A stretch of DNA of 64,000 bases. Origin: Bdellovibrio sp. GTDB taxonomy: Bacteria > Bdellovibrionota > Bdellovibrionia > Bdellovibrionales > Bdellovibrionaceae. Each line of letters begins with the position of its first letter. Position 1 is the stretch's first letter. This document shows, in pieces, positions 46,964 through 63,733 of this stretch. The notes below the pieces were generated by a model. That model saw only the letters and a list, made by a program, of their open reading frames with translations, was not told the DNA's origin and ran no database searches. The stretch is from the NCBI GenBank assembly GCA_036676395.1, contig JAKFCY010000002.1:2560001-2624000 (forward strand). Reading direction: 5' to 3'. Made by a program: the position numbers and the translations under genes.

Positions 46964-47225
46964 GACGGTTTTTCTCCTCTTCATAATATTTCTTGTACAT
47001 GATTTCCCATTCTGAGGTGCCTTCCATGACATTGCGTTTTAGAGACGCTACTTTTTCACGGGCTTTGGTATCAATTTCTGCATCTTCGCGAACAAACAGA
47101 ACAATAGCGCGTCTCGCGGCTACTAAAGCCTGGTCATCATCAGAAAAATCGACGATGTCATCGCCCCAAACTTTATCTGTGATAACTTTAGCCCAATGAC
47201 CGATACGCTCTTCAGAAAGAATCAT
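46956..47225 (-). CDS. DUF507-family protein
   Basis: MILSEERIGH..., AREKVASLKRNVMEGTSEWEIMYKKYYEEE; typical tandem pair. Confidence 0.75.
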   Translation of the reverse strand: MILSEERIGHWAKVITDKVWGDDIVDFSDDDQALVAARRAIVLFVREDAEIDTKAREKVASLKRNVMEGTSEWEIMYKKYYEEEKNRRG

Positions 47226-47511: not shown

Positions 47512-49761
47512 ATGTCCTTTTATTCGATATTAAAGACCAGTTTTTTTATTCTTACAAGCGCAATATCTTTAAGCGTCAGCGCCATTGATATACAAGAGGA
47601 GTTTGAAAGCAAACTCTCTTCACAAGCCATTTTACAATCGACAAAGTACTATGCCAGAGGGCTTTCGTACAAAATTAACCAGAAATTCGACGCAAAAGCT
47701 GTGCAGAAGAGCTTTTTAGACAAAGGTTATCGCGAAAGAGCAGGAGATCAGGTCATTTTAGCTGGAGATTTCATCACCCTACAAGCGCAAGCCTGCAGCA
47801 ACTTGTTCGGCATTTCTCTGATGCAGGATTCCACATGTTTTCACTGGAAGAACCAAACCAGCACGCTAAGTGGTTCAGAATCTTATGTGGCCGTGATCTA
47901 CCAAAACACCATTCAGCAAATTTTCAAAGCTGACCCGACTCGTGTTGTGACATCGGCGCAAACCGATCCAGTGATGGTGGCGCAGTTTCGCAACAACGAA
48001 CCGCTGATGCAAGAAGAGCTTAAATTGGCCGATTATCCGGTTCAGTGTTTGAATGCTGTGATCGCCATCGAAGATAATGATTTTTTAGATCATTCTGGTA
48101 TCAGCATCATGGGTCTGGCGCGCGCAGCGGTAAAAAATATTATGGCTTTACGAAAAGCCCAAGGTGGATCAACGATCACGCAACAATTAGTGAAAAATTA
48201 CTTTCTAACTCCAGAAAAAACTTATTCGCGCAAAGCCAAAGAACTTTACATGGCCGTAAAACTTGAATCCAAATGGAGCAAAGATGAAATTCTGCAAACT
48301 TACTTAAATGTGATCTACATGGGGCAAAGTGGAGCTTTTCAAGTGCGTGGTTTTGGCGCGGCCAGCCACTATTATTTTGGTAAAACAATTACGCAGCTAA
48401 ATTTATCAGAATGTGCGTTATTAGCAGCCATCGTTAACAATCCAGGCTTAAATAATCCCTGGAAAAAAACTGAAAAAGCAAAAATTCGTCGTCAGTTAGT
48501 GTTATCAAAGATGAAAGAACTTAAACTGATCACCGAAGATGAGTTTAAAAAAGCGAATGAATATAGGATGCCCGCACCAGCAGTTGTGAAAGCGACAGAA
48601 ACGGCACCCTACTATTTCGAAGCCGTTAGAAAACAAGCTACAGAACTTGGAATTACGATTGAAGGCACGACTTTTTACACAAGTCTTGATCTAACAATTC
48701 AAGAAACCGCACAAAAAGCTTTGCAATCCGGAATCAAAAATCTAACCGAGACAAAAAAATCTCTAATTAAGAAAAAAGCCAATGGTTTAGAACTTCAAGG
48801 TGTGGTTCTAGCGACAGATAATCAATCTGGCTTTGTCACCGCCTTTGTCGGCGGGCAAAATTTTCGCCAATCGCAGTTTAATCGCGCTCTTTATGCTAAA
48901 CGCCAAGTGGGCTCACTGATTAAGCCTTTTGTTTATCTATCGGGTTTGCAATACGGCTTAACAGATGAATCATCGGTAACGCCGACAACAACTCTGAATG
49001 ATCAGGCGTTCGAGTGGAAGTTTGATAATAACCGTAAAACATGGAAGCCAGAAAACTACGATAAAAAATTTCGCGGCGAGATCCCTTACTTTTTTGCTTT
49101 AAAAGAAAGTCTAAATTCGCCGACGGCACAAATTGCCCATCAGGTTGGAATCGAAAAAGTCATCGAATTATCGCACCTGCTTGGGTTAACCTCAGATATG
49201 ACTGCATTACCTGCGACTTCACTGGGATCAAGCCAGCACACGCCGCTTGAAGTGCTGCAAGCTTACAGCAATATTTCACGTTTTGGTGACCAGATTAAAT
49301 TGTCATTTATTGAAAAGGCTTTCGATGATTCAGGAAAATTACTTTTCGAATCAACTGCGAACTTTGAACCACAGCCCGAAAGTAAATCTGATAAAACAAA
49401 AACAGCGGTACTTGTGGGAATGATGAAAGAAACGATGCAATCTGGTACTGCCAAGTATGTCGTCGCCTCTGGATTTAAAAAACCATCTGCAGGCAAGACT
49501 GGAACCACATCTGACGGAAAAGACGCTTGGTTTGCCGGGTTTACTCCGAGTACAACAGCGATTGTATGGATTGGTTTTGATCAAAGCTTGGCAACAGCGT
49601 TAACCGGCGGTGGTGCCGCTGTGCCGATCTGGACAAACTTTATGAAACAAATCACTGAATCAGATTCAGATAGCGATTTTATTTGGCCCGATACTGTTGA
49701 AATCAAAGAAATTGAATCAACAGTAGACCAGAAAAAAATAAATTTAGTTTTTGAAAAATAG
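47512..49761 (+). CDS. mrcB: Class A penicillin-binding protein (PBP1B-like transglycosylase/transpeptidase)
   Basis: EDNDFLDHSG, GGSTITQQLVKN, RKAKE, SLIK (SxxK), SLN, KTGT. Confidence 0.9.
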   Translation: MSFYSILKTSFFILTSAISLSVSAIDIQEEFESKLSSQAILQSTKYYARGLSYKINQKFDAKAVQKSFLDKGYRERAGDQVILAGDFITLQAQACSNLFGISLMQDSTCFHWKNQTSTLSGSESYVAVIYQNTIQQIFKADPTRVVTSAQTDPVMVAQFRNNEPLMQEELKLADYPVQCLNAVIAIEDNDFLDHSGISIMGLARAAVKNIMALRKAQGGSTITQQLVKNYFLTPEKTYSRKAKELYMAVKLESKWSKDEILQTYLNVIYMGQSGAFQVRGFGAASHYYFGKTITQLNLSECALLAAIVNNPGLNNPWKKTEKAKIRRQLVLSKMKELKLITEDEFKKANEYRMPAPAVVKATETAPYYFEAVRKQATELGITIEGTTFYTSLDLTIQETAQKALQSGIKNLTETKKSLIKKKANGLELQGVVLATDNQSGFVTAFVGGQNFRQSQFNRALYAKRQVGSLIKPFVYLSGLQYGLTDESSVTPTTTLNDQAFEWKFDNNRKTWKPENYDKKFRGEIPYFFALKESLNSPTAQIAHQVGIEKVIELSHLLGLTSDMTALPATSLGSSQHTPLEVLQAYSNISRFGDQIKLSFIEKAFDDSGKLLFESTANFEPQPESKSDKTKTAVLVGMMKETMQSGTAKYVVASGFKKPSAGKTGTTSDGKDAWFAGFTPSTTAIVWIGFDQSLATALTGGGAAVPIWTNFMKQITESDSDSDFIWPDTVEIKEIESTVDQKKINLVFEK

Positions 49762-49762
49762 T

Positions 49763-50290
49763 TTAGTCATTACCTTTGTATTCTTTATCCAGATCAAGAT
49801 CACAACCATTTTTAAAAACATCACCATTTGGTCTTACATAAGTGACCATAACAATGGCGTGATTTTTTTTAGTTTTTTCAACTTCTAAAATTTCAGAAGA
49901 ACCGTCTTTTCTATCAACAGCTGTGATTGATACTTTTGTTTCTGAAAAACTGGCTTGTGTAATTTTATCATCAATCGACATAAATGTAATGCCCACTGGA
50001 TTCGGATGGTAACTATCCAAGAAAGCCTCTAATGGAAAAGCTTTATTTTCGCGTAAAGAAGATGAAAGTGTTTCGGGATTAACCGAAAAAACTCCACCAA
50101 CGCATCTATGAACATTAAATGGATTTTTCGACACACCGACAATGTGACCTCTAAATTCGCCTTTAGGTAAGAAATTAGCGATCGTTTGAAAAGCAAAAAG
50201 TTTTTCTTCGCGACCCAATTCGTCTTGAATTCCTTCAGCGAAGCTGTTTAAAGACAATAGAACCGTTGCAGCTAATAAAATACTTTTCAT
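49763..50290 (-). CDS. Secreted hypothetical protein
   Basis: MKSILLAATVLLSLNSFA signal peptide; SD AAGGAG. Confidence 0.75.
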   Translation of the reverse strand: MKSILLAATVLLSLNSFAEGIQDELGREEKLFAFQTIANFLPKGEFRGHIVGVSKNPFNVHRCVGGVFSVNPETLSSSLRENKAFPLEAFLDSYHPNPVGITFMSIDDKITQASFSETKVSITAVDRKDGSSEILEVEKTKKNHAIVMVTYVRPNGDVFKNGCDLDLDKEYKGND

Positions 50291-50336
50291 AAAAACTCCT
50301 TTTGAAAACTTTCAATTTTCTAACAAAAGAAGATAT

Positions 50337-50352
50337 TGCCAAAGACAGGCCA
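50337..50352 (-). promoter_or_regulatory. Putative sigma54 promoter
   Basis: Minus strand TGGCCTGTCTTTGGCA, GG-N10-GC, about 47 nt upstream of ATG 50290. Confidence 0.5.
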
Positions 50353-50454
50353 GATAAAATTAGATAGAAATGAATTTAGTAGGAATAGCGACGGCCAGAA
50401 AAGACCGCGGCCATTAATTGCTAGTCAGCTGTTATTTACGGCGAACAATAGCCA

Positions 50455-50469
50455 GTCTCAGATTGAGAC
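50455..50469. promoter_or_regulatory. Perfect palindrome GTCTCA-N3-TGAGAC, candidate activator site
   Basis: GTCTCAGATTGAGAC; related copies at 41655, 41719, 17024 and 10253. Confidence 0.55.
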
Positions 50470-50476
50470 AAGCTTG

Positions 50477-51427
50477 TTATGACTTCAGTTCGACTACTTG
50501 AGTTTCGAAGGCGAAATCCCAAGTAGTCGTTTCTTTAGCGGGATGTTTTTCAAAGGCTGCGCCAGCTCTTTCTTTGATCTTCTGAATGTCCTGAAGACTA
50601 GCAGAAGGATCATAGTGAGCCATGTATACTTGTTTAATAGCAAAATTCCCGCAAAGATTAAAAGCTCTTTCAAAAGTTCCATGGCCCCAACCTTTTTTCT
50701 GGTTCATTTCGTCTTCTTCGTACTGCGCATCGATATACATTAAATCTAAATTTTCGTAAAGCCCTGCGTCTTTGCCTAAGTCTTCACGAGTTACACGTGT
50801 GGCTTCGGTATCGACTGCGTGCCCATAGGCTTTACCACCATGTTCGATACGAAAACCGTAACAAGGATCTGGATGATCAAGCAAGTACGGAGTCACTGCA
50901 AAGCCATTAATGTAGCGCTTTTCATGCGGAGAAAGTTTAATAAACTGAATGTTCGCTTTAAGATCTTCATAACCCACCGGAAAAATCGGTTTCTGAAAAA
51001 GATCGCGCACAATTTTTTCACACTCAGGCTGTACGCAATAATACTTAACTGTACAACCCGGAATAAAATGTGGAGCAAAGAAAGGTAACCCAAGAATATG
51101 ATCAAAATGAAAGTGAGTAATTAAAATATGATATTCTTTTTGCGCAAAACGATTTTTCGCCAACGTATCGCTAAGGTATTTGATGCCACTGCCACCATCG
51201 ATAATAATAGTTTGATCGTCGCCTTGAACTTCAACACAAGTTGTAGCAACACCGTAACCGCTGATATCAACAAGTCTTTTTTCAGAAAGAAATTTATCAA
51301 CTTCAACGGGTGTTTTATAACCTTTATCCAAAAACTCGCGCATCAAAAGAGCGAATTGCTCTTTTGCTTCAATTGGGCTCGAACTGCTCGGAAGCGATCC
51401 ACGAACTCCCCAAAATTTTACTTTCAT
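50477..51427 (-). CDS. MBL-fold metallo-hydrolase (RNase Z/cyclic nucleotide phosphodiesterase-like)
   Basis: MKVKFWGVRGS, THFHFDHILG, LDHP, GWGHGT, AHYDP. Confidence 0.9.
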   Translation of the reverse strand: MKVKFWGVRGSLPSSSSPIEAKEQFALLMREFLDKGYKTPVEVDKFLSEKRLVDISGYGVATTCVEVQGDDQTIIIDGGSGIKYLSDTLAKNRFAQKEYHILITHFHFDHILGLPFFAPHFIPGCTVKYYCVQPECEKIVRDLFQKPIFPVGYEDLKANIQFIKLSPHEKRYINGFAVTPYLLDHPDPCYGFRIEHGGKAYGHAVDTEATRVTREDLGKDAGLYENLDLMYIDAQYEEDEMNQKKGWGHGTFERAFNLCGNFAIKQVYMAHYDPSASLQDIQKIKERAGAAFEKHPAKETTTWDFAFETQVVELKS

Positions 51428-51633
51428 GTGTTGAATACCACGATGTGTTTTCCTTATTTAACACTATTAGTCTATTTTCTGATCATAACTTCCGCAAACA
51501 TTTCTGGGTAAACCTAGACAAGATTTCGTATGTTTACGAAGACCAAAGTCGGTAACCTCGACCAAGGTATTTCGCAAGCTACTAAATATCTAAGTATTTA
51601 GCCATAATCAGATTTGTCGAAGGTGGTTATCGC

Positions 51634-53448
51634 ATGAAGTGGTTGAATCGTTGGTTCTCGTTTTCTTGGAAGAAGTTGGTGTTGGTTGTCTCGCTTGTAC
51701 CTTTGATGTGGTTTTTTCATGGTCTCGATTTCCCTAAAGTTGATATGTTTTCGAGAGATGTACTCCAATTTTTAAACGATAACTCGAATGTCGAAAAATC
51801 CATCGTCACGATCAATATGAATTTAAAAAACGAACAATTTAAACGTCCATTTGAATTCGAGTCTTTTAAAACTTTAGTTGATACTCTCCTGAAGCAAAAT
51901 CCAAAAAATTTAATACTATGCTTTTCTCCGAGAGAATTCACTGGTGATGATACTCACGAGGACATTCGCCAAAAAGTTCTCAATTATCTACTCCCGCTTA
52001 AAAATGTCTATCTATATTCCCAAAGTTCAAATGATAAACATGATCCCAACACAGACCGTATATTCGAAAAATTTCCAAGAATATTTTTATTAACAATGCC
52101 ATTTGATAATTCGGGCGGAAGAAAACGTCGACGGGCTATTGTTTGGTTTGAAACAGTGGGCATTGCTACTGAATTCGCAGAAATGCAGAAGTTAGGATTT
52201 CAAACTAAAAATCATACCGATTTTCCATATGGCTGGCATTATTGGAAAACGATTCAACCCTATATAAAAACTTTTAAACAAGATTCTTTTGGCTCGCATG
52301 ACGCTTATGAAGTTATAGATACAAATTTTAAAGATGTTAATGTCGAAGGAAAAACCGTAATTCTTGGCTCGATTGACGAATTTGCAATGCTTGGAACTGA
52401 ATCAATTTTTAATTTATACTCTAAAATTGGAACTCCTGGATATAAAGATTTTCCGCCTGCTGACTCGCTAGCCAACTATATGAATTTTTATATTCATGGT
52501 GATTACATAAAGCTAATTTCTAACTTTAACGATTTGATACTATTTGGTTTTGTATTAATAATCCTGATTTTCATCAATATTGAAACTAGAAAGAAATTAT
52601 ATATCCTGTTATCACTCATTCCGTTGATCGCAGTATGTACTCTAATCCTTTACATCGTGGATAGTTATTACATTAATTTCTCCCGTAGTATTACTGCGCT
52701 ATTTTTCATTCAGTATCTTGGCATTCCAATTATTATGTTTGCTATGTTTAAAGAACAAGAAACAAAGAAATTGCAAGAAATCAGCGATGCAAGGATAGAT
52801 GCCTTACTCACAGTTTCAGAAAAGGTTGCACATGATATTCGCTCACCACTTTCCGCAATAAATCTGGTAATGCACAAAGTGAATTTCGACGATCCAGAAT
52901 ATAAAGAAATCTTTGACAGCGCTGTTCAGCGAATAGACGAAACCGCGACCAAAATTCTTACTCGTTACAGAACAAAAACAGGCAGTGAGAATGAACCCGT
53001 CGAACAAATTGATCTTGCTGAAATTATATCTTCAATAACTAAAGAGAAAAAAATTCTAAATACAAAAGTTGAATTCGAATTAGTTATTAATTCAGAAACC
53101 ACAACAGCTTTAGGATTAAAATTAGATCTAGAACGCATTATCAGTAACATTTTAGATAATTCAATCTTCGCACTTCAAAGCATCTTAGAACCCAGAATTT
53201 TTATTTCAACAGATTCACATGACAACATGATTCGGGTAGGCATCACAGATAATGGCACAGGAATTCCCGATCAAATTTTGAAACTTTTAGGTACAACCCG
53301 CATTACAACGAAAGCAGACACCAACCAAGGTAACGGCATTGGAATTTTACATGCTAAGCGAGTTATCGAACGACTGAACGGTCGATTTGAAATCTCTTCG
53401 GCTGAACATGTCGGAACAACGATCAAAATCAGTTTACCAAAAGCCTAG
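51634..53448 (+). CDS. Sensor histidine kinase with a divergent CHASE2-like periplasmic domain
   Basis: N-terminal TM, VEGKTVILGS (CHASE2-like), three TMs, H-box VAHDIRSPL, N-box NILDNS, DNGTGI, GNGIGI. Confidence 0.85.
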   Translation: MKWLNRWFSFSWKKLVLVVSLVPLMWFFHGLDFPKVDMFSRDVLQFLNDNSNVEKSIVTINMNLKNEQFKRPFEFESFKTLVDTLLKQNPKNLILCFSPREFTGDDTHEDIRQKVLNYLLPLKNVYLYSQSSNDKHDPNTDRIFEKFPRIFLLTMPFDNSGGRKRRRAIVWFETVGIATEFAEMQKLGFQTKNHTDFPYGWHYWKTIQPYIKTFKQDSFGSHDAYEVIDTNFKDVNVEGKTVILGSIDEFAMLGTESIFNLYSKIGTPGYKDFPPADSLANYMNFYIHGDYIKLISNFNDLILFGFVLIILIFINIETRKKLYILLSLIPLIAVCTLILYIVDSYYINFSRSITALFFIQYLGIPIIMFAMFKEQETKKLQEISDARIDALLTVSEKVAHDIRSPLSAINLVMHKVNFDDPEYKEIFDSAVQRIDETATKILTRYRTKTGSENEPVEQIDLAEIISSITKEKKILNTKVEFELVINSETTTALGLKLDLERIISNILDNSIFALQSILEPRIFISTDSHDNMIRVGITDNGTGIPDQILKLLGTTRITTKADTNQGNGIGILHAKRVIERLNGRFEISSAEHVGTTIKISLPKA

Positions 53449-53478
53449 TACTAAAGTCCTAACGGTTTACATAAACTC

Positions 53479-53521
53479 AAGTAACTTCCGCAAGTTACTT
53501 TCAATTGGCTCTAGTATTGCT
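53479..53521 (+). promoter_or_regulatory. sigma54 promoter of the rSAM-peptide operon with an adjacent 9-bp inverted repeat
   Basis: TTGGCTCTAGTATTGCT at 53505-53521 (GG-N10-GC, TTGC); AAGTAACTT-CCGC-AAGTTACTT at 53479-53500. Confidence 0.7.
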
Positions 53522-53554
53522 ATTCTAATTTAGATTGAATAACTGAGAGACAAA

Positions 53555-54889
53555 ATGAAACCAATAGAACTGCGCCGACATAATGAAATTATCGCATTTA
53601 GAGCTGAGGACGACTCCCTTGTAGCTCTGCATGGTTTTAATATGGAAGTCGCAGAAATTAGTGAGGAATCATTTGCTCAAATGACACCGATTTCAATCTC
53701 TACAGGTGAAATTCCTGATGTCAAACTTCCAGACAACCATGAAGAAAAGGAAGCATTCGACGCATTGAGAGAATGGAACGCAGAAGAAAATCCAAATGCT
53801 AAAAGTGGAAAATTAGAGTTCGGAATTCGCTCAATTAATTTAAATGTAAACCAAATTTGTAATTTAAAATGTGCCTATTGCGCTGCCGGCGGCGATGGAA
53901 CTTACGGCGAACCCATGAATAAAATCTCGATCGAAAAAACCCTACCGCAACTCAAATTTTTCTTAATGCAGCTAAAGCCCGGTCAGAAATTTCGCGTGAT
54001 TATTATCGGTGGTGAGCCCCTTTTATATCCAGAAGCTATAAAGGCTGTGCACGACTATTTAATGTCAGAAGCGCCAAGCCGCGGAATTATCCCAAGACTT
54101 AGCATTGTGACAAACGGAACACTTCTTAACGGTAAAACTCTCGAGTTAATCCGCTCATTAAAAATCGAAATCAAAATTAGTCTCGATGGCGCTAAAGAAA
54201 TAAATGATGTTGTTAGACCAAGTAAAAACAATTCTAGCTCAACAGACCAAACAGTAGCTGGGATCGCTGAGTTAGCAAAAGATCGCGGTAACGTAACTAC
54301 ATGGGGAATCTCAGCGATCAGCACTTCAAAAAATCCAGAAACACTTTTAGCGTATCGTTATTTAAGAAGCTTAAATCCTGATTGGTTAGAATTTCATTTC
54401 GATGTTGGTGAGAAGTCGCAAGAACTTCAAGACAAACATATTGAACAAATGAACCTGATTGCTGCTGAAGCCTGGAAAATTGGTGGCGAAAAAGAACTCA
54501 GAAAAATAGCTCAGTTTGATCAAATTTTTCATCTTTTAGATAGCCAGCTTCGCCTTGAAAACCACTGTGGTGCTGGAAAAACTTACTTAATGGTCGACGC
54601 CAAAAACAAGATGTATCCTTGTGTTTGGGAGGCTGGCGACAAGGAGCAAGTTGTTGGTCAAAATGAACAACTCGACCATGCCAAGCTATCTAACTATTCA
54701 AAATCTCTTATAGAACTTAATAATTGCCAAACCTGCTGGGCTAGACACTTTTGCGGTGGCGGTTGTATGTATATCAATAAGCTCAATAATGGCAGTAAGC
54801 ATGTAAAAGATAAAATGTTCTGTGAACGTACGAGAAGCTTGCTTTTGCCTATTATTTCGTATTATAAATTAGCTAGGTCTGCGGAATAA
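53555..54889 (+). CDS. Radical SAM/SPASM peptide maturase (CteB/ScfB/anSME-like)
   Basis: CNLKCAYC, GGEPLL, VTNGTLL, ISLDG; seven-Cys SPASM HCGAG...YPC...CQTCWARHFCGGGC...FC; ~90-aa N-terminal extension in the position of an RRE. Confidence 0.92.
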   Translation: MKPIELRRHNEIIAFRAEDDSLVALHGFNMEVAEISEESFAQMTPISISTGEIPDVKLPDNHEEKEAFDALREWNAEENPNAKSGKLEFGIRSINLNVNQICNLKCAYCAAGGDGTYGEPMNKISIEKTLPQLKFFLMQLKPGQKFRVIIIGGEPLLYPEAIKAVHDYLMSEAPSRGIIPRLSIVTNGTLLNGKTLELIRSLKIEIKISLDGAKEINDVVRPSKNNSSSTDQTVAGIAELAKDRGNVTTWGISAISTSKNPETLLAYRYLRSLNPDWLEFHFDVGEKSQELQDKHIEQMNLIAAEAWKIGGEKELRKIAQFDQIFHLLDSQLRLENHCGAGKTYLMVDAKNKMYPCVWEAGDKEQVVGQNEQLDHAKLSNYSKSLIELNNCQTCWARHFCGGGCMYINKLNNGSKHVKDKMFCERTRSLLLPIISYYKLARSAE

Positions 54890-54906
54890 AGCCGCAGGGG
54901 GAATAT

Positions 54907-54990
54907 ATGAAAAAACATATCAAAAAAGTTAAAGCTCAAGAAGTTAGCGAAAAGCCGATTAAAGAACCGGGCTGCTCACCTATGAAATAG
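54907..54990 (+). CDS. 27-aa putative RiPP precursor peptide MKKHIKKVKAQEVSEKPIKEPGCSPMK (not in ORF track)
   Basis: SD AGGGGGA just upstream of ATG; starts 17 nt after the rSAM stop and fills the gap before the next kinase; SCIFF-like MK(K)HIK leader; single Cys near the C-terminus. Confidence 0.8.
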   Translation: MKKHIKKVKAQEVSEKPIKEPGCSPMK

Positions 54991-55004
54991 CTTGTGATTT
55001 TCTC

Positions 55005-56867
55005 TTGGAAGCATCACAAAAACTTGAACTTAAGTATTTAATTCTACGTACAATTTTCGCAATCGCCGTCGGCGTCCTTATCTCAGCATTTAATTTAGAT
55101 TTTATCGAAGGCTACCTGGTTGATTTTCGTATCCAAGCAAAAGCTTTTCTTGGGTTAGCAAAACCAAAAAACCCACAAGTTGCGATCGTATTAATTAACT
55201 TCAAAACAGTTGAAAAATATCAACGCCAACCTAACTTTCCTGATCACATCAAGTTTCTCAATCAACTCTCTGGATTAAACCCGAAATTTATCGTTTATGA
55301 GTTCAGAACAAGCGATGAAGAATTTTTAGAAATCAGTGGAACCTACAAAGAAAAACAAGAATTTGCAGATCAAATTAAAAGTTTTTCGAATCTTCATTTC
55401 TCAACTCAAAATTTAACTATTAAAGGTGAAACAGAAGAGTTTCGCCTTAAAGCTCCTTTAGACGAAATTAAATTCTCATCTATGCCTTTTACTGCTGATG
55501 GAAAATCATTCGGTAAAGATGGAGTTTCACGTCGCCTAATGTATCAATATCAGGATCAAGCAATGGTCCAACCTCGGATCGCTGCCTTCTATAATCCAGA
55601 GATTCAGAATCCAGAAAAGATCAGAGGAAACTTTTATTATTTAGAGTCATATCAAACTTATATTGATTATCACCCCGTTGGCTCATTTCCGACATATGCC
55701 TTTGAAGATGTCGTCGATGGCAAAGTTCCTAAAGATGCTTTCGAAGGTAAAGTAGTTATTGTGGGTTCAGATCTAGGTAAAGACCCCGATGACTATGCTT
55801 CTACTCCATATAATCGCCATTTCAGTGGTATGACTAAGACCGAACTTCAAGCCAATCAGATTCAAACTCTCATAGATAACAGTGCCCCACTTAAACCACA
55901 TCGTGCTGTTAATATTGCTATCGTTATTTTAATTTCATTCTTAACTCTCTACGCTACTTTATCTCTTACCCCAGCACGCGGTCTTTTAATCTTAGGCGGT
56001 ACTTTATTTGGGCTAGGCGTAATTTCTATTTTAGCATTTAGCGTTTTCGGTATCTGGTTCGATCTTTCGCATCCATTTCTAGCAATCTTCCTCTGCTACT
56101 ACTTCTTCATCCCCTACCGTCTTATCCGAGAAAACCGCAAGAGCTGGGAATACTACCAAAAGCATAAACTACTCTCTGAAGTCGAAGAGCTTAAAACAAA
56201 CTTCATCTCAATGATGTCGCACGATCTAAAGACTCCTATCGCGCGTATTACCGGCATGACTGAAGTAATCTACAAAGACCCACAGCAACTATCGTCTCAC
56301 CAAAGAGAAGCGCTGGACACGATCAGACATAGCTCTGACGATCTATTAAAATTCATCAACGCTATCCTTCAGTACGGAAGCATCGAAAGCCAAGGCGTTC
56401 AGTTACACAAACAAGCTAAAGATCTTAATCAGCTTCTAGCCGACGTCGTGAAGAAACACCAATTTCTAGCTAATGTTAAAAAGATCAAGATCATCCAAGA
56501 GCTTGAGCCGATGTTTCCTACCCAAGTAGACCCAGAGCTTATTAAACAAGTGTTTTCGAACTTACTCGAAAATGCGATTAAGTACTCTCCTGAAGAATCT
56601 ACCGTCTGGGTGCGTAGCCGCGAAGGCGACGATACTATAATAGTAGAGTTTCAAGATCAGGGTATGGGGATTCCGCCATCTGATCTTCCGAATATTTTCA
56701 TGAAATTCTTTCGTACCCACACGGTTAAGACCACAACCATTAAAGGTTCTGGCTTAGGGCTTTATTTAGCCCAGTACTTCGTAGAATTGCATAAGGGTAA
56801 AATCACGGTCGATAGCTCGCCTGAACGAGGCTCTAAGTTCACCGTTGAGCTTCCATTAGACAAATAA
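55005..56867 (+). CDS. CHASE2-domain sensor histidine kinase
   Basis: DGVSRR, FEGKVVIVGS, STPY, ELQANQIQTL (CHASE2), three TMs, SHDLKTPI, NLLENAIKYS, DQGMGI, GSGLGL. Confidence 0.93.
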   Translation: MEASQKLELKYLILRTIFAIAVGVLISAFNLDFIEGYLVDFRIQAKAFLGLAKPKNPQVAIVLINFKTVEKYQRQPNFPDHIKFLNQLSGLNPKFIVYEFRTSDEEFLEISGTYKEKQEFADQIKSFSNLHFSTQNLTIKGETEEFRLKAPLDEIKFSSMPFTADGKSFGKDGVSRRLMYQYQDQAMVQPRIAAFYNPEIQNPEKIRGNFYYLESYQTYIDYHPVGSFPTYAFEDVVDGKVPKDAFEGKVVIVGSDLGKDPDDYASTPYNRHFSGMTKTELQANQIQTLIDNSAPLKPHRAVNIAIVILISFLTLYATLSLTPARGLLILGGTLFGLGVISILAFSVFGIWFDLSHPFLAIFLCYYFFIPYRLIRENRKSWEYYQKHKLLSEVEELKTNFISMMSHDLKTPIARITGMTEVIYKDPQQLSSHQREALDTIRHSSDDLLKFINAILQYGSIESQGVQLHKQAKDLNQLLADVVKKHQFLANVKKIKIIQELEPMFPTQVDPELIKQVFSNLLENAIKYSPEESTVWVRSREGDDTIIVEFQDQGMGIPPSDLPNIFMKFFRTHTVKTTTIKGSGLGLYLAQYFVELHKGKITVDSSPERGSKFTVELPLDK

Positions 56868-57006
56868 ACACACTATAAACACAGCCCTAGAGCTTCTGCT
56901 CGCTAAGTAAACAATTCCTAGCTGGTGTCATTTTGCTTTTTTCGGTGTTCATTCGCTTAAAACTTGTGCTATACCCTACGACATATCGCTTACGGGGGAA
57001 TTATAT

Positions 57007-58578
57007 ATGTTAAAGGTTTTAGTTGTTGATGACGACCAAGCTCTACGCTTTTCGATCCGCTCTGCCTTAGAAGCTACTCGCAGATTCTCTATTGAAGAGG
57101 CTTTCGATGGCGTCAACGCTTTAGAAAAAGTTAAAGCCACTGATAGCACTAAACGTATCTATGACATCGTCATTCTTGATGTGGATATGCCGCGCATGAA
57201 CGGCTTAGCCGCACTTAAAGCGATTAAAGAATTCGATCCAGGCATTATCGTCTTAATGTTAACTGCACACGCGACGGTAGAAGCCGCTGTAGCAGCCGTT
57301 AAAGACGGAGCTTACAACTTTTTATCTAAACCAATCTCGGGTGATGATCTTACAGCCTTAATCGACAGAGCCATCAACGCTCACCGAATGATTTCGAACT
57401 TAGCCGTATCTTCACCGGTGTTTGTTGATGAAGGCCGTAAAATCATCGGTAACACTTCGCAAATGCAAAAAGTTTTTAACGTGATTCATAAGCTTGCTAA
57501 AGTTGATACCCCGGTATTAGTGCGCGGAGCTTCAGGAACAGGTAAAGAGCTTGTTGCTAAAGCCATCCACTTTAACAGCGCCCGTAAAGATGAAAAATTC
57601 GTGGCGATCAACTGTTCGGCGATTCCTGAGAATTTATTTGAATCTGAATTATTTGGTCACGAAAAAGGATCGTTTACTGGTGCTGACCAACGTAAAATCG
57701 GAAAGTTTCAATTTGCTGAAGGCGGAACTTTATTCTTAGATGAAGTTGGCGACATGCCACAGTTGATGCAAGTTAAAATCTTACGTGTATTACAAGAAAA
57801 ATTATTTACTCCGGTTGGATCAAATCGCGAGATTCCTACAAACGTAAGAATTATCGCAGCGACAAACCGTCCGTTAGAAAAAATGATGGAAGAAGGCCGC
57901 TTTCGTGAAGACTTATTCTATCGTTTAAATGTTGTACCTATTATTTTACCTCAGTTAAATGACCGCAAAGATGATTTAGATGTTTTAATTAATATCTTCA
58001 TCAAAAAATTTAACGTAGCTCACGGTAAAAAAATTAATGGCTTAACCAAAGATGCACTTGATGCAATGAAACGTTATAACTGGCCAGGAAATATCCGTGA
58101 ATTAGAGAACGTGATCGAACATTCTTTCGTTCTTGAATCAGGAAATCAGATCACTTTAGGAAGCTTACCAGAAGCGGTTTTGATGGCTGCTGGAATCAGT
58201 TTAATCGACCAAATGGATAAGATTCAGAGTCAATCAGAAACTATGAAGCAAATGAACGGCGCAACTGCTGTAAACATGGGCGTGACAGATTCTGACGACG
58301 ACGATGATTTATCTATTGACGCAGATTCTGAAATCGATGGCGATGATGAAATTGACGGCGAAGTGATCGGCCTAAGTGTTTCACCAAATGGCTTACTTGA
58401 TTTCAATGCACAAAAAGAAGAGTTCGAAAAACAGTTTATTATCAAGGCCTTGAAAACATTTAAAGGCAAAATTAATCAAACAGCATTGCACGCAAACATT
58501 CCGAAAAAGACTTTATTACGTAAAATTGAAAAGTACGGAATCGTGGCGAAAGAATATGCAAAAGTTGATCTTGATTAA
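57007..58578 (+). CDS. sigma54-dependent response regulator (NtrC family: REC-AAA+-HTH)
   Basis: VVDDD...LDVDMP receiver; GASGTGKE; ESELFGHEKGSFTGA; FLDEVG; WPGNIRELEN; C-terminal Fis-type HTH. Confidence 0.95.
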   Translation: MLKVLVVDDDQALRFSIRSALEATRRFSIEEAFDGVNALEKVKATDSTKRIYDIVILDVDMPRMNGLAALKAIKEFDPGIIVLMLTAHATVEAAVAAVKDGAYNFLSKPISGDDLTALIDRAINAHRMISNLAVSSPVFVDEGRKIIGNTSQMQKVFNVIHKLAKVDTPVLVRGASGTGKELVAKAIHFNSARKDEKFVAINCSAIPENLFESELFGHEKGSFTGADQRKIGKFQFAEGGTLFLDEVGDMPQLMQVKILRVLQEKLFTPVGSNREIPTNVRIIAATNRPLEKMMEEGRFREDLFYRLNVVPIILPQLNDRKDDLDVLINIFIKKFNVAHGKKINGLTKDALDAMKRYNWPGNIRELENVIEHSFVLESGNQITLGSLPEAVLMAAGISLIDQMDKIQSQSETMKQMNGATAVNMGVTDSDDDDDLSIDADSEIDGDDEIDGEVIGLSVSPNGLLDFNAQKEEFEKQFIIKALKTFKGKINQTALHANIPKKTLLRKIEKYGIVAKEYAKVDLD

Positions 58579-58672
58579 TAATTGAACTGCATTTTCTTAC
58601 ATAAAATTTTGCATTCGGTAACGTGGTATTACGATTGACTCGAATATAGGGAAACTTTACCGTTGAGTCCCT

Positions 58673-59218
58673 ATGACAGTTAACCCGTTGCCTCCTCAAG
58701 CTTATACCAAAGATACTTTACAGAAAGCGTATTCGTGGCTGTTGTCACAATCGTCTTCTGTTAAAGAAATGGCGCAAGATCAAAATATGTTGGTCAGCCT
58801 TTATCTAAAAGCACAACGTAATGGGGATGCTGTTCTTGAAACTCCAAGCATTCAAAATTTCAAACAAGAATTAAAATCGTTAGCTAACATGATGGGTGAT
58901 TTTCAATCGCCGCAACAGTTAGCTACAGCGGCTTCGCACATGCACGCCCCAGCACATAAACATGCGCCAACAATCCATTCGCATGCTTCGCAAACCAATG
59001 CGACAGCTACCGCAGCAGCGGTTTCTACGTCGCATGTCACGACGACGACGGTTAGTCAGTCGCGTGTATCAACTGATATGAATGCAAATGGTTTTGATCA
59101 AAAAACTTTAGAGGCTATTCAGCAAGTGCGTGAAACTTTTAACTTAAGTTCTGATGCTGAAGCGATCCGCGCCTTAGTGGCGTTAGGAATTAAACAATTC
59201 CGTAAATCTGGTTTATAA
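58673..59218 (+). CDS. Hypothetical cytoplasmic protein
   Basis: 181-aa ORF with His/Ala/Thr-rich linker; C-terminal FNLSSDAEAIRALVALG resembles a ribbon-helix-helix-type helix pair (tentative). Confidence 0.7.
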   Translation: MTVNPLPPQAYTKDTLQKAYSWLLSQSSSVKEMAQDQNMLVSLYLKAQRNGDAVLETPSIQNFKQELKSLANMMGDFQSPQQLATAASHMHAPAHKHAPTIHSHASQTNATATAAAVSTSHVTTTTVSQSRVSTDMNANGFDQKTLEAIQQVRETFNLSSDAEAIRALVALGIKQFRKSGL

Positions 59219-59235
59219 TTTTTCAATTTCAGCGT

Positions 59236-59278
59236 TACAGCAAGTGCGCAAAAAATTTTTAATCGCGCACTTGCTGTA
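59236..59278. terminator. 14-bp perfect inverted repeat between convergent genes, probable terminator
   Basis: TACAGCAAGTGCGC-N15-GCGCACTTGCTGTA. Confidence 0.65.
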
Positions 59279-59302
59279 TAAATTTTTTTAAGTTCTGTTA
59301 AT

Positions 59303-59743
59303 TTAATTTGGCTCAGGTACGAATTTATCAATCGCGCAAAGATAACGTCTTTCTGGCGGATTATCTTTATTCGGCCACCAATAAATGCATTTGATATCTG
59401 CAGTACGGGTAAAACATTTCGGCCCTTCACAGACAGCTCCATTAACGTCTTTTAAAAAGTAGTACAGTTTTTTCGCGACCATACCGGTCTTTTGTACATT
59501 CACGTTATGAAATTCATCGTGCAGCAGACAAGTGTAATTAACTCCACCGTTTACGGCTCTTTGGCAAAGCACAGGTTTTGCCCATTCGCGTGTTTGCATT
59601 TCTGCCGGAAAAGCTGTGCGTAAGCCATATGCGGCTAAGACATTGTATAATTTTTTTGATTGCCCTTCATTTAAAGCAACGGGAACAGCTTGCGCTGCTT
59701 GCGCAAAGGCGAAAAGTAACAAACTTACTAGTAGTGATTTCAT
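59303..59743 (-). CDS. Secreted Cys-rich protein, paralogue 3 of 3
   Basis: Signal peptide (AQA); LNEGQSKKLY; six Cys; WWPNKDNPPERRYLC. Confidence 0.78.
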   Translation of the reverse strand: MKSLLVSLLLFAFAQAAQAVPVALNEGQSKKLYNVLAAYGLRTAFPAEMQTREWAKPVLCQRAVNGGVNYTCLLHDEFHNVNVQKTGMVAKKLYYFLKDVNGAVCEGPKCFTRTADIKCIYWWPNKDNPPERRYLCAIDKFVPEPN

Positions 59744-60252
59744 TTTCGATCTCCATTTTTTGGTTTTGGTTTCGGTTGTGATAAAAGGTATTCAACAGAA
59801 CAAGAATATTTATTAGCAACTAACGAACAGGCCATTTTTTCTGCGGCGTTCATACAAGTTTCGCTGTCATCTTCGCAATCCATAGATACATGCTTAACCA
59901 TCAGCTTGAAAAGCGGATCAGCGATCTTATTATATTTCGTTAGTTCACGCGAGCGAAGGTCATCATACAATGAACACCCGAGCTTGCGGCCATCTTCCAT
60001 ATTTTCGACACAAATCACATCTGAAGCCTGAATATTCTTAGTTTGCGTCTGACGGTCTATAACAACAAGTTTCCATTTGTTAAGCACATCAAACAGCTCT
60101 TTAGAATCGACTTCGTTGAGTTCAGTTTTTACCAATTCAGGCTCTGGCGGAATCACTGGATCAGTGGGTAATTCTTGGGCCCAAGCAGAGTTAAAATAAA
60201 ATTGACCGGTGATAAGTAGCGTAAGAAAACTGCGAAGAATATTCTTTTTCAT
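59740..60252 (-). CDS. Secreted Cys-rich protein, paralogue 2 of 3
   Basis: Signal peptide (AWA); ELNEVDSKELFDVLNKW; six Cys. Confidence 0.78.
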   Translation of the reverse strand: MKKNILRSFLTLLITGQFYFNSAWAQELPTDPVIPPEPELVKTELNEVDSKELFDVLNKWKLVVIDRQTQTKNIQASDVICVENMEDGRKLGCSLYDDLRSRELTKYNKIADPLFKLMVKHVSMDCEDDSETCMNAAEKMACSLVANKYSCSVEYLLSQPKPKPKNGDRK

Positions 60253-60272
60253 GTTGAATCCTAATATAAAAA

Positions 60273-60752
60273 TTAATTCGTTGGAATTGGTGTGCGAATC
60301 GGCTCAAGCCAACAGATGTGACGTCTTCCGATTGGAATAAGAACTGGCGGATTTTTAGGATCCCATGGATGCCAACAACGGATTAAACGAGCTGCCGTTA
60401 AGCATTCTCTGTTTTCTAAATTGTTTGGTCCACAGATTGTTCCCACATGGCGGTCTAATAGTTTTGCTAACCAGCCGGCCGCCTTATCCGAGCGAGTAAG
60501 TTCTTTATCATGATTAGTGTCTAATAAAGTACAACCTGGATATTTGTATTGATCTTTGTTGTCCCAGTAACAACGGGGATCGATTACATCAATGCGGATA
60601 AGACGTCTTTCTTGATCAGCATAGCGGGTTCCCCATTTTGACAGGGCCATATACATATCTTTTGAATCAGCCTCGTTCAGTTCCATGGGGACCACGGCGG
60701 CAAATGCAGATGACGACATCATTAGCACTAGTGCGACTAACAGTTTTTTCAT
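60273..60752 (-). CDS. Secreted Cys-rich protein, paralogue 1 of 3
   Basis: SD AAGGAG; signal peptide (AFA); ELNEADSKDMYMALSKW; six Cys. Confidence 0.78.
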   Translation of the reverse strand: MKKLLVALVLMMSSSAFAAVVPMELNEADSKDMYMALSKWGTRYADQERRLIRIDVIDPRCYWDNKDQYKYPGCTLLDTNHDKELTRSDKAAGWLAKLLDRHVGTICGPNNLENRECLTAARLIRCWHPWDPKNPPVLIPIGRRHICWLEPIRTPIPTN

Positions 60753-60985
60753 AAAAGCTCCTTTTTTATGTTCTTTTTGTTCGTGTTTGTTTTCCAGAGG
60801 CTTCTATTTTAGAAAAACTGCTGCTTTTGTGAATGTATTTATTTTTTGAACGCCCGTAATAAAACCTACCCTGAGGAAACTTGAGATTGTCGGGGTAAGT
60901 TGATCGGGGCCAGTGCAGCGCAAAAAACGACTTAAAGGCCCAGCTAGCCCTACTATCACTGGGGCAGTTGTGCTAAAGTTTTCAG

Positions 60986-63733
60986 ATGCAAAATTCAAAT
61001 AGCCCCGACTACAAAAGCACGATCCGTTTACCGCAAACTGACTTTCCGATGAAAGGTGATTTACCAATTCGCGAACCTCAGATTATTGCTGGTTGGGAAA
61101 AAAATAATATTTATCAAAAGCTGCAGGAGAAAAACAAAAACGGCCCAGGTTTTACAATGCCTGATGGCCCTCCGTACGCGAATGGTTCAATCCATATCGG
61201 CCATGCTTTAAATAAATCTTTAAAAGATTTCGTGATTAAATATAAAAATATGCAAGGGTACTCTGCCCCGTTTATTCCTGGGTGGGATTGCCACGGTCTT
61301 CCGATTGAGCACAAAGTCATGAAAGACCTTGCCGATAAAAAGATAACAAAAACTGATCAAGAAATTCTAGCGCTGTGTCGTGAAGAAGCGACTAAATGGG
61401 TAAATCATCAACGCGAACAGTTCAAAAGATTAGGCGTGTTAGCTGATTGGGAGAACCCGTACCTAACAATGTCGAAACAATACGAAGCTGAAGAGGTTCG
61501 TGAATTCGCCCGCGCGTTCAAACGCGGCGTAATCTATCAAGGTGTAAAACCAGTTTACTGGAATTGGACTTTAAAAACTGCATTAGCTGATGCCGAGATC
61601 GAATACCACGATAAGGTTTCTCCTTCGATCTATGTAAAATTTAATATCACTGATGATAGAACTTTAGCAAAACTTGGAAATCCAAAAGGCACAACTTCAT
61701 ATGTGATCTGGACAACAACGCCATGGACATTGCCTGCTAACGTGGGTATCGCGCTCCATCCTGAATTTGATTACGGCGTATTCTCGTCTAACGGTGAAAA
61801 CCTAGTGATCGCAAAATCATTAAAAGAATTTTTTGAAAAAGACTCAGGTCTTTCTTTAACATTAGTTTCTACTGTAAAAGGTTCTGATTTAGATTTAACT
61901 GAAGCCCGTCACCCATTCTTAGATCGCAAATCCATTGTCGTCTTGGCTGATCACGTAACTGCTGATGCAGGTACTGGCGCGGTTCATACAGCTCCGGGCC
62001 ACGGTGCAGACGATTTCCGTGTTGGACAAAAATATAATTTACCAATTATCAATCCGGTGGCCGAAAACGGAACCTACACTGATGAATTTCCCGAAATGCA
62101 GGGCATGAATATCTTTAAAGCGAATCCTGTGATCATTGAAAAATTAAAAGCTTCAGGGCATTTAATTAAACACACTGATATCACGCACAGCTACCCGCAC
62201 TGCTGGAGATCGAAAACGCCATTAATCTTTAGAACGACGGCGCAATGGTTTATCGGTATCGATCAAGAAAACACCGAGATCAGAAAAAATACTTTAAAAG
62301 CGATGAATGATGTTCAGTTTTTTCCTGAATGGGGTAAAGCGCGTTTTGAAGCGATGATGCAGAATCGTCCCGACTGGTGTTTATCTCGTCAAAGAATCTG
62401 GGGCGTACCAATCCCGATTTATTACAACGAAGAAACTGGCAAACCCTTAGCTGACCTTGATGTTATGATGAAAGTCGCAGATGTTATTGAAGCCGGCGGT
62501 ATCGAAGCGTTTTATACTACCCCTCCAGAAAAAATCATCGGTAAGCCAGGTTATAAACTTGGGCGCGATATTTTAGATGTGTGGTTTGATTCGGGCGTAT
62601 GCCATGCGGCAGTCCAAGCAAAACGCGGATACAAAAATGTTCAGGCTGATATTTACTTAGAAGGTTCTGATCAACATCGCGGCTGGTTTAACACATCAAT
62701 GCTTTCAAGTATGTCGACAACAGGCAAGCCTCCGTTTAAAGCTTTAATCACCCACGGTTTTGTGAATGATTCTCAAGGTCGTAAGATGTCTAAGTCTTTA
62801 GGCAATGTTGTTGATCCAAATGAAATTACAAAACAATCAGGATCTGAGATCGTACGCCTTTGGGCATCGTCAGTAGATTACGGAACAGATGTCGGCTGTG
62901 GTAAGGAAGAATTAACTCGCGTAACTGAGACCTACCGTAAAATCAGAAACACGATGAAATTCTTATTAGGCGCGATCAATGATTTCGATGCCTCTAAAGA
63001 ACAAATCGAAGTTGCAAAAATGCCAATGATTGATCGTTGGATGATGCACCAGTTGAATAAATTAATCACTGAAGTAACTAAAGCTTACGAAGTTTACGAG
63101 TTTTACAAAGTTTACCAATTATTAAATCACTTCTTCACAGTGACTTTGTCTGCAACATACATGGATATCTTAAAAGACCGTATGTACACATGGAAAGCTG
63201 ACGGATTAGAACGTAAGTCGACGCAAACTGTTTACCATCACGTGACTACGTCAGTAATGCGTATGATGGCGCCGATTTTAACTTTCTTAGCTGAAGAAAG
63301 TTATGGTTATATGAAAAATAAAGCGCACGATTCCATCTTGTTAGAATCATTTCCGAAAGCTAACGCTTCTTGGAATGCTCCTGATTTAGATGTGACTTTC
63401 GATGATTTGTTAAGAATTCGCTCTGAAGCGCAAAAGAAATTAGAAGAACTACGCACAGCCAAAACAATCGGAGCAAGCTTAGAAGCTTCATTAAATGTTT
63501 CTGCTGATGGCGAAGCCTTTGCTGCGTTAGAAAAATTAAACTTGTCACATGCAAAATGTAACTTACGTGAATTTTTCATCGTGTCGAATGTAACTTTAGT
63601 TAAAGGACCTTTATCTGTAACAGCTGTTAAAGCTGATGGAGAGAAATGTCTTCGTTGTTGGGTGTACGACACTTTATCAACAGCAGCAAACACACAAGGC
63701 TTATGCCCTAAATGTGTTGAGGCCTTAGCGTAA
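60986..63733 (+). CDS. ileS: Isoleucine--tRNA ligase
   Basis: DGPPYANGSIHIGH, PGWDCHGLPIE, WTTTPWT, EGSDQHRGWF, KMSKS, C-terminal zinc finger CLRCW...CPKC. Confidence 0.98.
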   Translation: MQNSNSPDYKSTIRLPQTDFPMKGDLPIREPQIIAGWEKNNIYQKLQEKNKNGPGFTMPDGPPYANGSIHIGHALNKSLKDFVIKYKNMQGYSAPFIPGWDCHGLPIEHKVMKDLADKKITKTDQEILALCREEATKWVNHQREQFKRLGVLADWENPYLTMSKQYEAEEVREFARAFKRGVIYQGVKPVYWNWTLKTALADAEIEYHDKVSPSIYVKFNITDDRTLAKLGNPKGTTSYVIWTTTPWTLPANVGIALHPEFDYGVFSSNGENLVIAKSLKEFFEKDSGLSLTLVSTVKGSDLDLTEARHPFLDRKSIVVLADHVTADAGTGAVHTAPGHGADDFRVGQKYNLPIINPVAENGTYTDEFPEMQGMNIFKANPVIIEKLKASGHLIKHTDITHSYPHCWRSKTPLIFRTTAQWFIGIDQENTEIRKNTLKAMNDVQFFPEWGKARFEAMMQNRPDWCLSRQRIWGVPIPIYYNEETGKPLADLDVMMKVADVIEAGGIEAFYTTPPEKIIGKPGYKLGRDILDVWFDSGVCHAAVQAKRGYKNVQADIYLEGSDQHRGWFNTSMLSSMSTTGKPPFKALITHGFVNDSQGRKMSKSLGNVVDPNEITKQSGSEIVRLWASSVDYGTDVGCGKEELTRVTETYRKIRNTMKFLLGAINDFDASKEQIEVAKMPMIDRWMMHQLNKLITEVTKAYEVYEFYKVYQLLNHFFTVTLSATYMDILKDRMYTWKADGLERKSTQTVYHHVTTSVMRMMAPILTFLAEESYGYMKNKAHDSILLESFPKANASWNAPDLDVTFDDLLRIRSEAQKKLEELRTAKTIGASLEASLNVSADGEAFAALEKLNLSHAKCNLREFFIVSNVTLVKGPLSVTAVKADGEKCLRCWVYDTLSTAANTQGLCPKCVEALA

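Follow-up and report, generated by a model that had tools for sequence, protein, structure and literature searches.

A conserved single-cysteine peptide encoded beside a CteB-like rSAM/SPASM enzyme in Bdellovibrio, a candidate RiPP-type precursor

Introduction

Systems in which an rSAM enzyme is accompanied by a short peptide with a leader are already known. In SCIFF systems the precursor gene precedes the maturase gene, and in the PapA/PapB system, which yields the ranthipeptide freyrasin with its repeated Cys-to-Asp beta-thioethers, a repeated C-x3-D unit is the motif of PapA. A related enzyme, anSME, acts on the sulfatase formylglycine motif, C/S-x-P-x-R, and the D that follows its second SPASM Cys is catalytic. 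For CteA, the six-cysteine SCIFF peptide of Clostridia, the available text of PMC8326336 describes residues 1 to 21 with the leader on the RRE of the maturase CteB and a Cys at the SPASM auxiliary cluster. The same text describes the streptococcal pair NxxcA/NxxcB, in which the ranthipeptide carries a single Cys-derived thioether, and a table of this review lists SCIFF under 'Quorum sensing', citing Chen et al. 2020. SCIFF-derived ranthipeptides of solventogenic clostridia and the streptococcal RaS-RiPPs are precedents for rSAM peptides that are tied to signalling.

The locus described here lies in a window of 64,000 nucleotides, the whole stretch of Bdellovibrio sp. DNA that was analysed (assembly GCA_036676395.1, contig JAKFCY010000002.1, positions 2,560,001 to 2,624,000). 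A first-pass annotation of the window had singled out a 27-codon ORF beside an rSAM gene and had read its product as a truncated SCIFF-like precursor that might define a new RiPP subclass. A description of this system was not found in a search of the full-text literature, whose coverage leaves out most subscription journals, and in the available part of PMC12186529, Bdellovibrio appears only as an entry in the reference list.

Results and Discussion

A gene of 27 codons follows the rSAM/SPASM gene

The operon and the kinase gene in front of it contain the following features, numbered from the first letter of the window.

51634..53448, + strand: upstream histidine kinase, 604 aa (HATPase_c 6.8e-17)
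53506..53520, + strand: sigma-54-type promoter element TGGCTCTAGTATTGC (-24 GG / -12 GC)
53555..54889, + strand: rSAM/SPASM peptide-maturase-like enzyme, 444 aa, with an N-terminal RRE-like domain, CX3CX2C and a seven-Cys SPASM
54896..54902, + strand: Shine-Dalgarno sequence AGGGGGA of the peptide gene, 5 nt 5' of the ATG, as read from the sequence
54907..54990, + strand: 27-aa precursor-like peptide, with leader H4-I5-K6-K7-V8-K9, single Cys23 and the motif C-S-P
55005..56867, + strand: CHASE2-HisKA-HATPase_c sensor kinase, 620 aa (CHASE2 4.3e-21, HisKA 9.2e-16, HATPase_c 7.1e-29)
57007..58578, + strand: NtrC-type response regulator/sigma-54 activator, 523 aa (Response_reg 1.2e-27, Sigma54_activat 5.5e-72, HTH_8)

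The peptide ORF, with the product MKKHIKKVKAQEVSEKPIKEPGCSPMK, runs from an ATG at 54907 through 27 sense codons to a TAG at 54988-54990 and contains one Cys, at residue 23; on these points, and on the strong Shine-Dalgarno sequence, the first-pass annotation had read the DNA correctly. The ATG lies 17 nt beyond the stop codon of the rSAM/SPASM gene, a further 14 nt separate the peptide stop codon from the next ORF (620 aa, start at 55005), and G-rich stretches 5' of the peptide ATG are common to most orthologues. The ORF had also been described as unannotated, which agrees with a set of about 15 billion called proteins that includes the adjacent rSAM protein but no exact copy of the 27-aa sequence. 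Gene callers have recorded some relatives as 'hypothetical protein', among them A11Q_2112 of Pseudobdellovibrio exovorus JSS. On its own, an ORF of 27 codons is unremarkable, as positions 48000 to 62000 are overlapped by 179 ORFs with 20 aa or more; this one stands above chance because of its conservation at orthologous rSAM loci.

Searches of whole genomes with the rSAM protein found it in 25 of 41 relatives and in 21 of the 24 within the same genus. A small ORF of like design was present at the rSAM 3' end at all 20 loci from this search, at 4/4 further loci that include three other families of the order and have 36 to 41% rSAM identity, at 6/6 loci of a sister genus and at 25/25 loci that the peptide profile had previously missed, giving a homologous small ORF at 55 of 55 orthologous rSAM loci. 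Named genome records hold 80 rSAM loci, all except one belonging to entries for Bdellovibrio, Pseudobdellovibrio, Bdellovibrionaceae, Bdellovibrionales or Bdellovibrionota (79/80). Three of these records had too little flank and were left out, and in the remaining 77, a set that overlaps the 55 loci, the peptide was present every time (a regular expression found 56, ORF lists gave another 8, and a reading of three frames gave the last 13, of which several overlap the rSAM 3' end). At the inspected loci, the peptide ORF is kept down to 33% rSAM identity, and all of their peptides have a basic leader resembling H-I-K-K-[VIL]-K-P. This approach by way of the orthologous rSAM genes brings out a conserved position, leader, single Cys and C-x-P across all 55 and all 77 loci; a conserved leader with a variable core is the pattern that the first-pass annotation had anticipated for a true precursor.

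The codons of the invariant residues vary among the orthologues, with CAT 19 times and CAC 9 times for the His, TGC 15 times and TGT 13 times for the Cys, AAA 15 times and AAG 13 times for the Lys before the conserved Pro, and four different codons for this Pro. This synonymous turnover indicates selection on the protein. No Rfam family matched anywhere in the window, and no unusual RNA fold was seen at 54880-55010 (z 0.20). The 27-codon ORF is a real gene that had been left uncalled.

A family of single-cysteine peptides with a C-x-P core

The 123 distinct peptides are 27 to 69 aa long, with the window peptide as the shortest variant in the family. H-[IV]-x-K occurs in 115 of them and exactly one Cys in 118, and the core motif is C-x-P in 116, C-P-x in 6 and neither of these in 1. 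Between 3 and 13 residues lie C-terminal to the Cys. The Cys and the Pro at +2 are the only invariant features of the core, and no acceptor side chain conserved across the family was seen among the 123 peptides; an Asp or Glu is found within 5 residues of the Cys in only 84, and some cores consist almost entirely of Gly. Many Bdellovibrio peptides end in C-[IVL]-P-[IV]-R or K, and the window peptide ends in C-S-P-M-K.

A profile of the family recovers the window peptide with 30.3 bits (E 1.6e-6 for the genome). Searched against 1.84 billion representative proteins, it gave 59 matches at E<=1e-3, all of them members of the single-Cys family, and a set of 5.8 billion clusters contained 76 peptide clusters for which no Pfam family is recorded; the members of both groups are 30 to 83 aa long. 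Neither the peptide nor its profile had a sequence match in the PDB at E<=10, so that the CteA fragment was not recovered, and an ESM Atlas search with a 40-aa family member gave no usable match. Single peptides had chance matches to the NCBIfam models for lachnocin (E 0.042), crocagin (E 0.073) and DUF2080 (E 0.014) and to a few enzyme models; these were rejected, being below cut-off, found in at most two peptides each and in no case fitting the shared motifs. Matches of the peptide profile outside the order, in genomes G180 and G325, were discarded as false positives with no rSAM gene nearby (loci L032 and L033).

Several loci show variations on this design. At L115 (CAZIYJ010000001.1), two tandem precursor-like ORFs follow one rSAM gene within about 110 nt around the rSAM stop codon, and both have a basic leader and a G-L-x-C-x-P core. 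In one family of the order (L052-L055 and L057), C-P-E-[LRI] replaces C-x-P. A distant member of the phylum with a weak rSAM match (L059, 180 bits) has a peptide with the leader M-K-H-V-K-K and a single Cys, in a core that is without Pro and reads C-S-W. In the high-GC relatives L128-L135, the peptide has the leader V-K-F-I-K and the core G-G-C-I-P-V-S-G, and its frame begins inside the rSAM 3' end in another reading frame, which is why gene callers and simple downstream scans miss it.

The peptide is not a truncated SCIFF

The proposal that the peptide is a truncated SCIFF is not borne out. The window peptide reaches 12.5 bits (E 0.1) with the SCIFF model TIGR03973 (six_Cys_in_45), whose cut-off is 50, an equally good match occurs elsewhere in the window's genome, and 9 of 14 control genomes also match. 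The H-I-K-K leader does align to positions 1 to 21 of the model, at chance level only. When other peptides of the family were compared with TIGR03973, none matched (0/21, 0/81 and 0/27), and no SCIFF-like proteins were present among the 59 matches of the family profile in the 1.84 billion representatives. SCIFF identity was rejected on account of the chance-level score and the failure of the model to match any other family member. With one Cys in 27 aa, the window peptide also lies outside a definition by six Cys in about 45 residues. The five cysteines that had been read as missing were not lost, as a single Cys is the normal design of this family (118/123). The claimed likeness in N-terminus and Cys position holds as far as a weak alignment and a predicted mode of binding that is similar; it does not extend to membership of the SCIFF family or to truncation. 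The first-pass annotation had further suggested a new RiPP subclass, which is not established because NxxcA, a ranthipeptide with a single thioether, is already known from the available text of PMC8326336. It is plausible that the single Cys would give rise to one small macrocycle.

The adjacent enzyme resembles CteB

The 444-aa enzyme matches PF04055 (3.4e-15). Among 23 orthologues, the rSAM cysteines C102, C106 and C109 (CX3CX2C) are invariant, as are the SPASM cysteines C338, C356, C391, C394, C400, C404 and C423 and, within the N-terminal 90 residues, E-V-A (31-33) and W74. None of the best 25 of the 63 NCBIfam families that the enzyme matched reached its cut-off. The top score was obtained with PapB (NF047865; 158 bits, E 3.3e-46, cut-off 340), and lower scores were obtained with the nif11-type maturase model (151 bits, cut-off 519), the 'ScfB-related orphan maturase' NF040492 (123.8 bits, cut-off 855), the SCIFF maturase ScfB (TIGR03974; 120.6 bits, cut-off 425), QhpD (105 bits, cut-off 453) and anSME (TIGR03942; 79.2 bits, cut-off 349). 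The strongest matches thus include several thioether formers (PapB, ScfB-related and QhpD), which come ahead of anSME; the NxxcB model is not among the best 25 of the 63. As far as sequence models can tell, neither the peptide nor the enzyme has a curated family.

An AF2 model of the enzyme (pLDDT 90.9) has its best fold match in CteB (5WHY and 5WGG; E 7e-23 to about 1e-22, TM 0.75 to 0.79, 459 to 472 columns), a match that spans the full length with the N-terminal domain included. ChlB and anSMEcpe come next, the latter with a fold match of E 4.8e-16 (TM 0.64/0.76) and a sequence match of 1.2e-13. CteB is also the best PDB match by sequence, at 1.6e-26 and, with a profile, 1.1e-43. In alignments, a segment reading 'hCgaG' or 'CG[AS]G' has a single Cys in the family and in CteB, whereas anSME reads SSCGMNGTCTC with three. 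The residue that follows the second SPASM Cys is P or V in the family, H in CteB and D in anSME. This pattern presumably suits an auxiliary cluster that leaves an iron open to the substrate thiolate, as in CteB, and not the fully ligated cluster of anSME.

Of the features that mark RRE-dependent rSAM/SPASM RiPP systems in general, the rSAM motif, the seven-Cys SPASM and a co-conserved adjacent short gene are present here, and a leader-binding N-terminal RRE is predicted in silico only, from N-terminal strands and a helix and from predicted contacts. The suggestion that the ORF encodes the precursor of an rSAM enzyme is supported in part: a precursor-like peptide lies next to an enzyme whose closest solved relative, CteB, is a SCIFF maturase.

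A predicted complex docks the leader on the RRE and brings the Cys to the auxiliary cluster

Prediction of the enzyme-peptide complex gave an ipSAE of 0.86 (median of three runs), compared with 0.02 for the best control. Of 157 solved complexes, 116 reach this mark, as do 2 of 215 mismatched pairs; the present prediction, with a partner of fewer than 30 residues and user-supplied alignments for both chains, lies outside this calibration. Contact agreement in these runs was at least 60% and the pLDDT of the partner at least 59. Residues 2 to 13 of the peptide are predicted to contact enzyme residues 24, 30-39 and 66-74, and Gly22-Cys23 to contact 328-331, 338, 340, 344, 356-358 and 406. The likeness to CteA in leader-RRE binding that had been claimed for the peptide thus reappears in the predicted complex only, with the RRE holding the H-I-K-K leader and the Cys placed at the site of the auxiliary cluster, and this predicted geometry agrees with the description of CteA/CteB in the available text of PMC8326336. 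The score may reflect likeness to the solved CteB-CteA complex rather than binding of the window copy, and as modelled, the binding of the leader to the RRE is a matter of analogy with SCIFF leaders, not of homology.

Proposed modification and alternative readings

We consider it probable that the 27-aa peptide is an RRE-guided precursor of the RiPP type and the thioether substrate of the CteB-like enzyme, encoded in a sigma-54-driven operon. The basic H-I-K-K-V-K leader would lie as a strand on the RRE, against the E-V-A strand (31-33) and the helix with W74, and once the leader is docked, Cys23 would reach the first of the auxiliary Fe-S clusters in the SPASM domain. One iron of this cluster is probably free for the peptide thiolate, because the family, like CteB, has a single Cys in the segment where anSME has several. 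The enzyme would then form one Cys-to-carbon thioether inside the short C-x-P core, and since no acceptor side chain is conserved, the acceptor may be the invariant Pro, an alpha-carbon of the backbone, or an Asp, Glu or Thr specific to one lineage. A minimal C-x-P core of this kind gives room for new chemistry. On a more far-reaching and rather improbable reading, the product may also carry an undescribed C-x-P modification, either a thioether (Cys-Pro or to the backbone) or a peptide aldehyde. A point against the proposal is that the hosts belong to an aerobic family, an unusual setting for oxygen-sensitive rSAM enzymes.

A different chemistry on the Cys itself stays in play because C-x-P(-x-R/K) resembles the sulfatase motif. 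Under such a reading, the peptide is still the substrate, and a Cys-centred reaction guided by this motif, for example an anSME-like formation of formylglycine, takes the place of thioether formation. The C-x-P of 116 of the 123 peptides, the Bdellovibrio endings in C-x-P-x-R/K, the lack of a conserved acceptor residue in the family and the related fold and sequence of anSMEcpe would all suit it. We nevertheless regard it as unlikely: CteB and the thioether-forming families outscore anSME in every comparison, the Arg at +4 is not conserved across the peptide family, and the enzyme differs from anSME in having an RRE, which the anSME chains of 364 to 381 residues leave uncovered, in being without the extra cysteines of the auxiliary segment and in carrying P or V in place of the anSME D.

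It is more doubtful still that the peptide binds the enzyme and stays unmodified, serving the rSAM enzyme or the CHASE2 kinase as a regulatory or cluster-capping partner, with the true substrate encoded elsewhere. The leader on the RRE, the Cys at the cluster, the variable linker and the hypervariable core together make up the architecture of a RiPP precursor, and the closest relatives of the enzyme are all peptide maturases; these points speak against a mere partner, for which one may cite the strict co-occurrence and predicted binding in spite of the missing conserved acceptor, the lack of an evident protease or exporter among the ORFs around the locus, and a near-universal presence in one family (51/52) that looks housekeeping-like rather than typical of a secondary metabolite. 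Finally, the ORF could have arisen by chance, or it could belong to a non-coding element in the gap between the rSAM and kinase genes, given that 14 kb here hold 179 ORFs with 20 aa or more and that public gene sets leave this one out. In view of conservation at the protein level with synonymous variation, at every locus inspected and down to 33% rSAM identity, together with the absence of an Rfam match and an ordinary RNA fold, this is scarcely credible. A thioether-bearing precursor remains the reading that we prefer.

Compared with the described systems, the locus shares with CteA/CteB the order of RRE, rSAM and SPASM domains in the enzyme, for which CteB is the best match by both sequence and fold. 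It differs in its hosts, which are Bdellovibrionota rather than Clostridia, in its peptides, which have one Cys in 27 to 69 aa and a C-x-P core where CteA has six Cys, in the position of the peptide gene 3' of the enzyme gene, an enzyme-first order unlike that of SCIFF loci, and in the linkage of the operon to a CHASE2 kinase and a sigma-54 activator. Among curated enzyme models, PapB scores highest, though below cut-off, and unlike PapA, the window peptide is without repeated C-x3-D units and has no acidic residue after the Cys of its core. NxxcA also has a single thioether, with an acceptor Asn in N-x-x-C, whereas the window peptide reads E-P-G-C and no Asn is conserved at -3 across the family. 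For anSME, the resemblance lies in a related fold and in a substrate motif like the C-x-P of the family, which often stands as C-x-P-x-R/K at the C terminus, and the difference in the missing RRE, the extra auxiliary-cluster cysteines and the D after the second SPASM Cys.

A sigma-54-type promoter and a CHASE2 kinase accompany the genes

The element TGGCTCTAGTATTGC has one mismatch to TGGCAC-N5-TTGC and ends 34 nt 5' of the rSAM ATG. A like element, with GG and GC kept, is found within 200 nt upstream of the rSAM gene at 23 of 30 loci, compared with a same-strand background of 10 matches in 110,888 nt, or 0.019 per window; by the criteria used, the motif is missing at the other 7. The window's genome has rpoN (446 bits, above cut-off). 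Judged by the conserved linkage and the promoter motif, transcription of the rSAM and peptide genes would be driven by this sigma-54 promoter.

Downstream of the peptide gene, the kinase at the same position carries CHASE2 at 6/6 other loci tested. A gap of 139 nt separates the CHASE2 kinase gene from the activator gene, whose product has a Fis-type HTH and a like architecture at 2/2 other loci tested; L026-L031 have at the same position an ORF of 503 to 511 aa that starts MLKVLVVDDD or MLRVLVVDDD. The upstream kinase is a full-length paralogue of the downstream one (BLASTP, 22% identity over about 600 aa, E 4e-18), its N-terminal sensor region included. An ORF of 605 aa occupies the position of the upstream kinase in L024, and other families have a PBP1A-like gene there; this kinase occurs in the window's genus and may lie outside the core of the system.

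A perfect 9-bp inverted repeat, AAGTAACTT and AAGTTACTT separated by 4 nt, lies shortly before the sigma-54-like element, at 53479-53500. The closest relatives, L002 and L004, retain this repeat in part, and a regulator could bind there. The core of the repeat, TAACTTCCGCAA, occurs one further time, at 51486-51497, upstream of the first kinase gene; two copies of TAACTTCCGCAA are not significant, as 11 of 100 shuffles reach two.

Distribution and possible role

Among 401 sampled genomes of the phylum, 63 match the rSAM profile. An rSAM orthologue is present in 51 of the 52 sampled genomes of the window's family, and in 6/27, 1/1 and 2/2 of those of three other families of the order; beyond the order, there are two weak or partial matches. 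The peptide profile alone, which is less sensitive than the rSAM profile, matches 38 of the 401 genomes. Near-universality in a predatory family points to a physiological role rather than that of an accessory antibiotic.

A signalling role is suggested only by the gene linkage and the promoter. One speculative arrangement would be a self-regulating loop with the modified peptide as the signal: in predators of the Bdellovibrio type, the modified peptide would be released, the periplasmic CHASE2 domain of the adjacent kinase or kinases would sense it, and these would drive the sigma-54 activator and, through it, the rSAM-peptide promoter. As a complete scheme, we rate this self-activating system as tentative and rather improbable. 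No protease or exporter was evident among the ORFs identified around the locus, and the idea of a secreted signal is weakened for this reason. The system would also differ from the rSAM peptides of quorum sensing in its cis-encoded CHASE2 kinase, its NtrC-type activator, its sigma-54 promoter and its Gram-negative, predatory host. Were the loop to be confirmed, it would provide the first defined peptide ligand for CHASE2 and a RiPP-based density or prey cue for predators. The fixed link to the CHASE2 kinase, the sigma-54 activator and the promoter makes the regulatory hypothesis testable in cultured Bdellovibrio strains that are genetically tractable; candidate carriers of the operon in culture are Pseudobdellovibrio exovorus JSS, Bdellovibrio sp. 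qaytius and strains of B. bacteriovorus.

Other genes around the operon

Following the activator gene, positions 58673-59218 (+ strand) encode a 181-aa protein that has no Pfam or NCBIfam match. A homologue with the same N terminus follows the activator in the Bdellovibrio loci L026-L028, and the protein may be part of the cassette. On the other side of the operon, 50477-51427 (- strand) is a metallo-beta-lactamase-fold gene (Lactamase_B_2 6.5e-16), a homologue of which lies upstream of the rSAM gene in the Bdellovibrio locus L027.

Further out, three tandem ORFs of 146, 170 and 159 aa at 59303-60752 (- strand) show, by eye, signal-peptide-like starts and L-N-E-x-(D/Q)-S-K motifs, and their products look like paralogous secreted proteins that contain Cys. 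At 46397-47032 (- strand), an ORF of 211 aa has an N-terminal half that is, again by eye, basic and rich in Lys, Ala and Pro, and a C-terminal half that looks like a GroES-type co-chaperonin.
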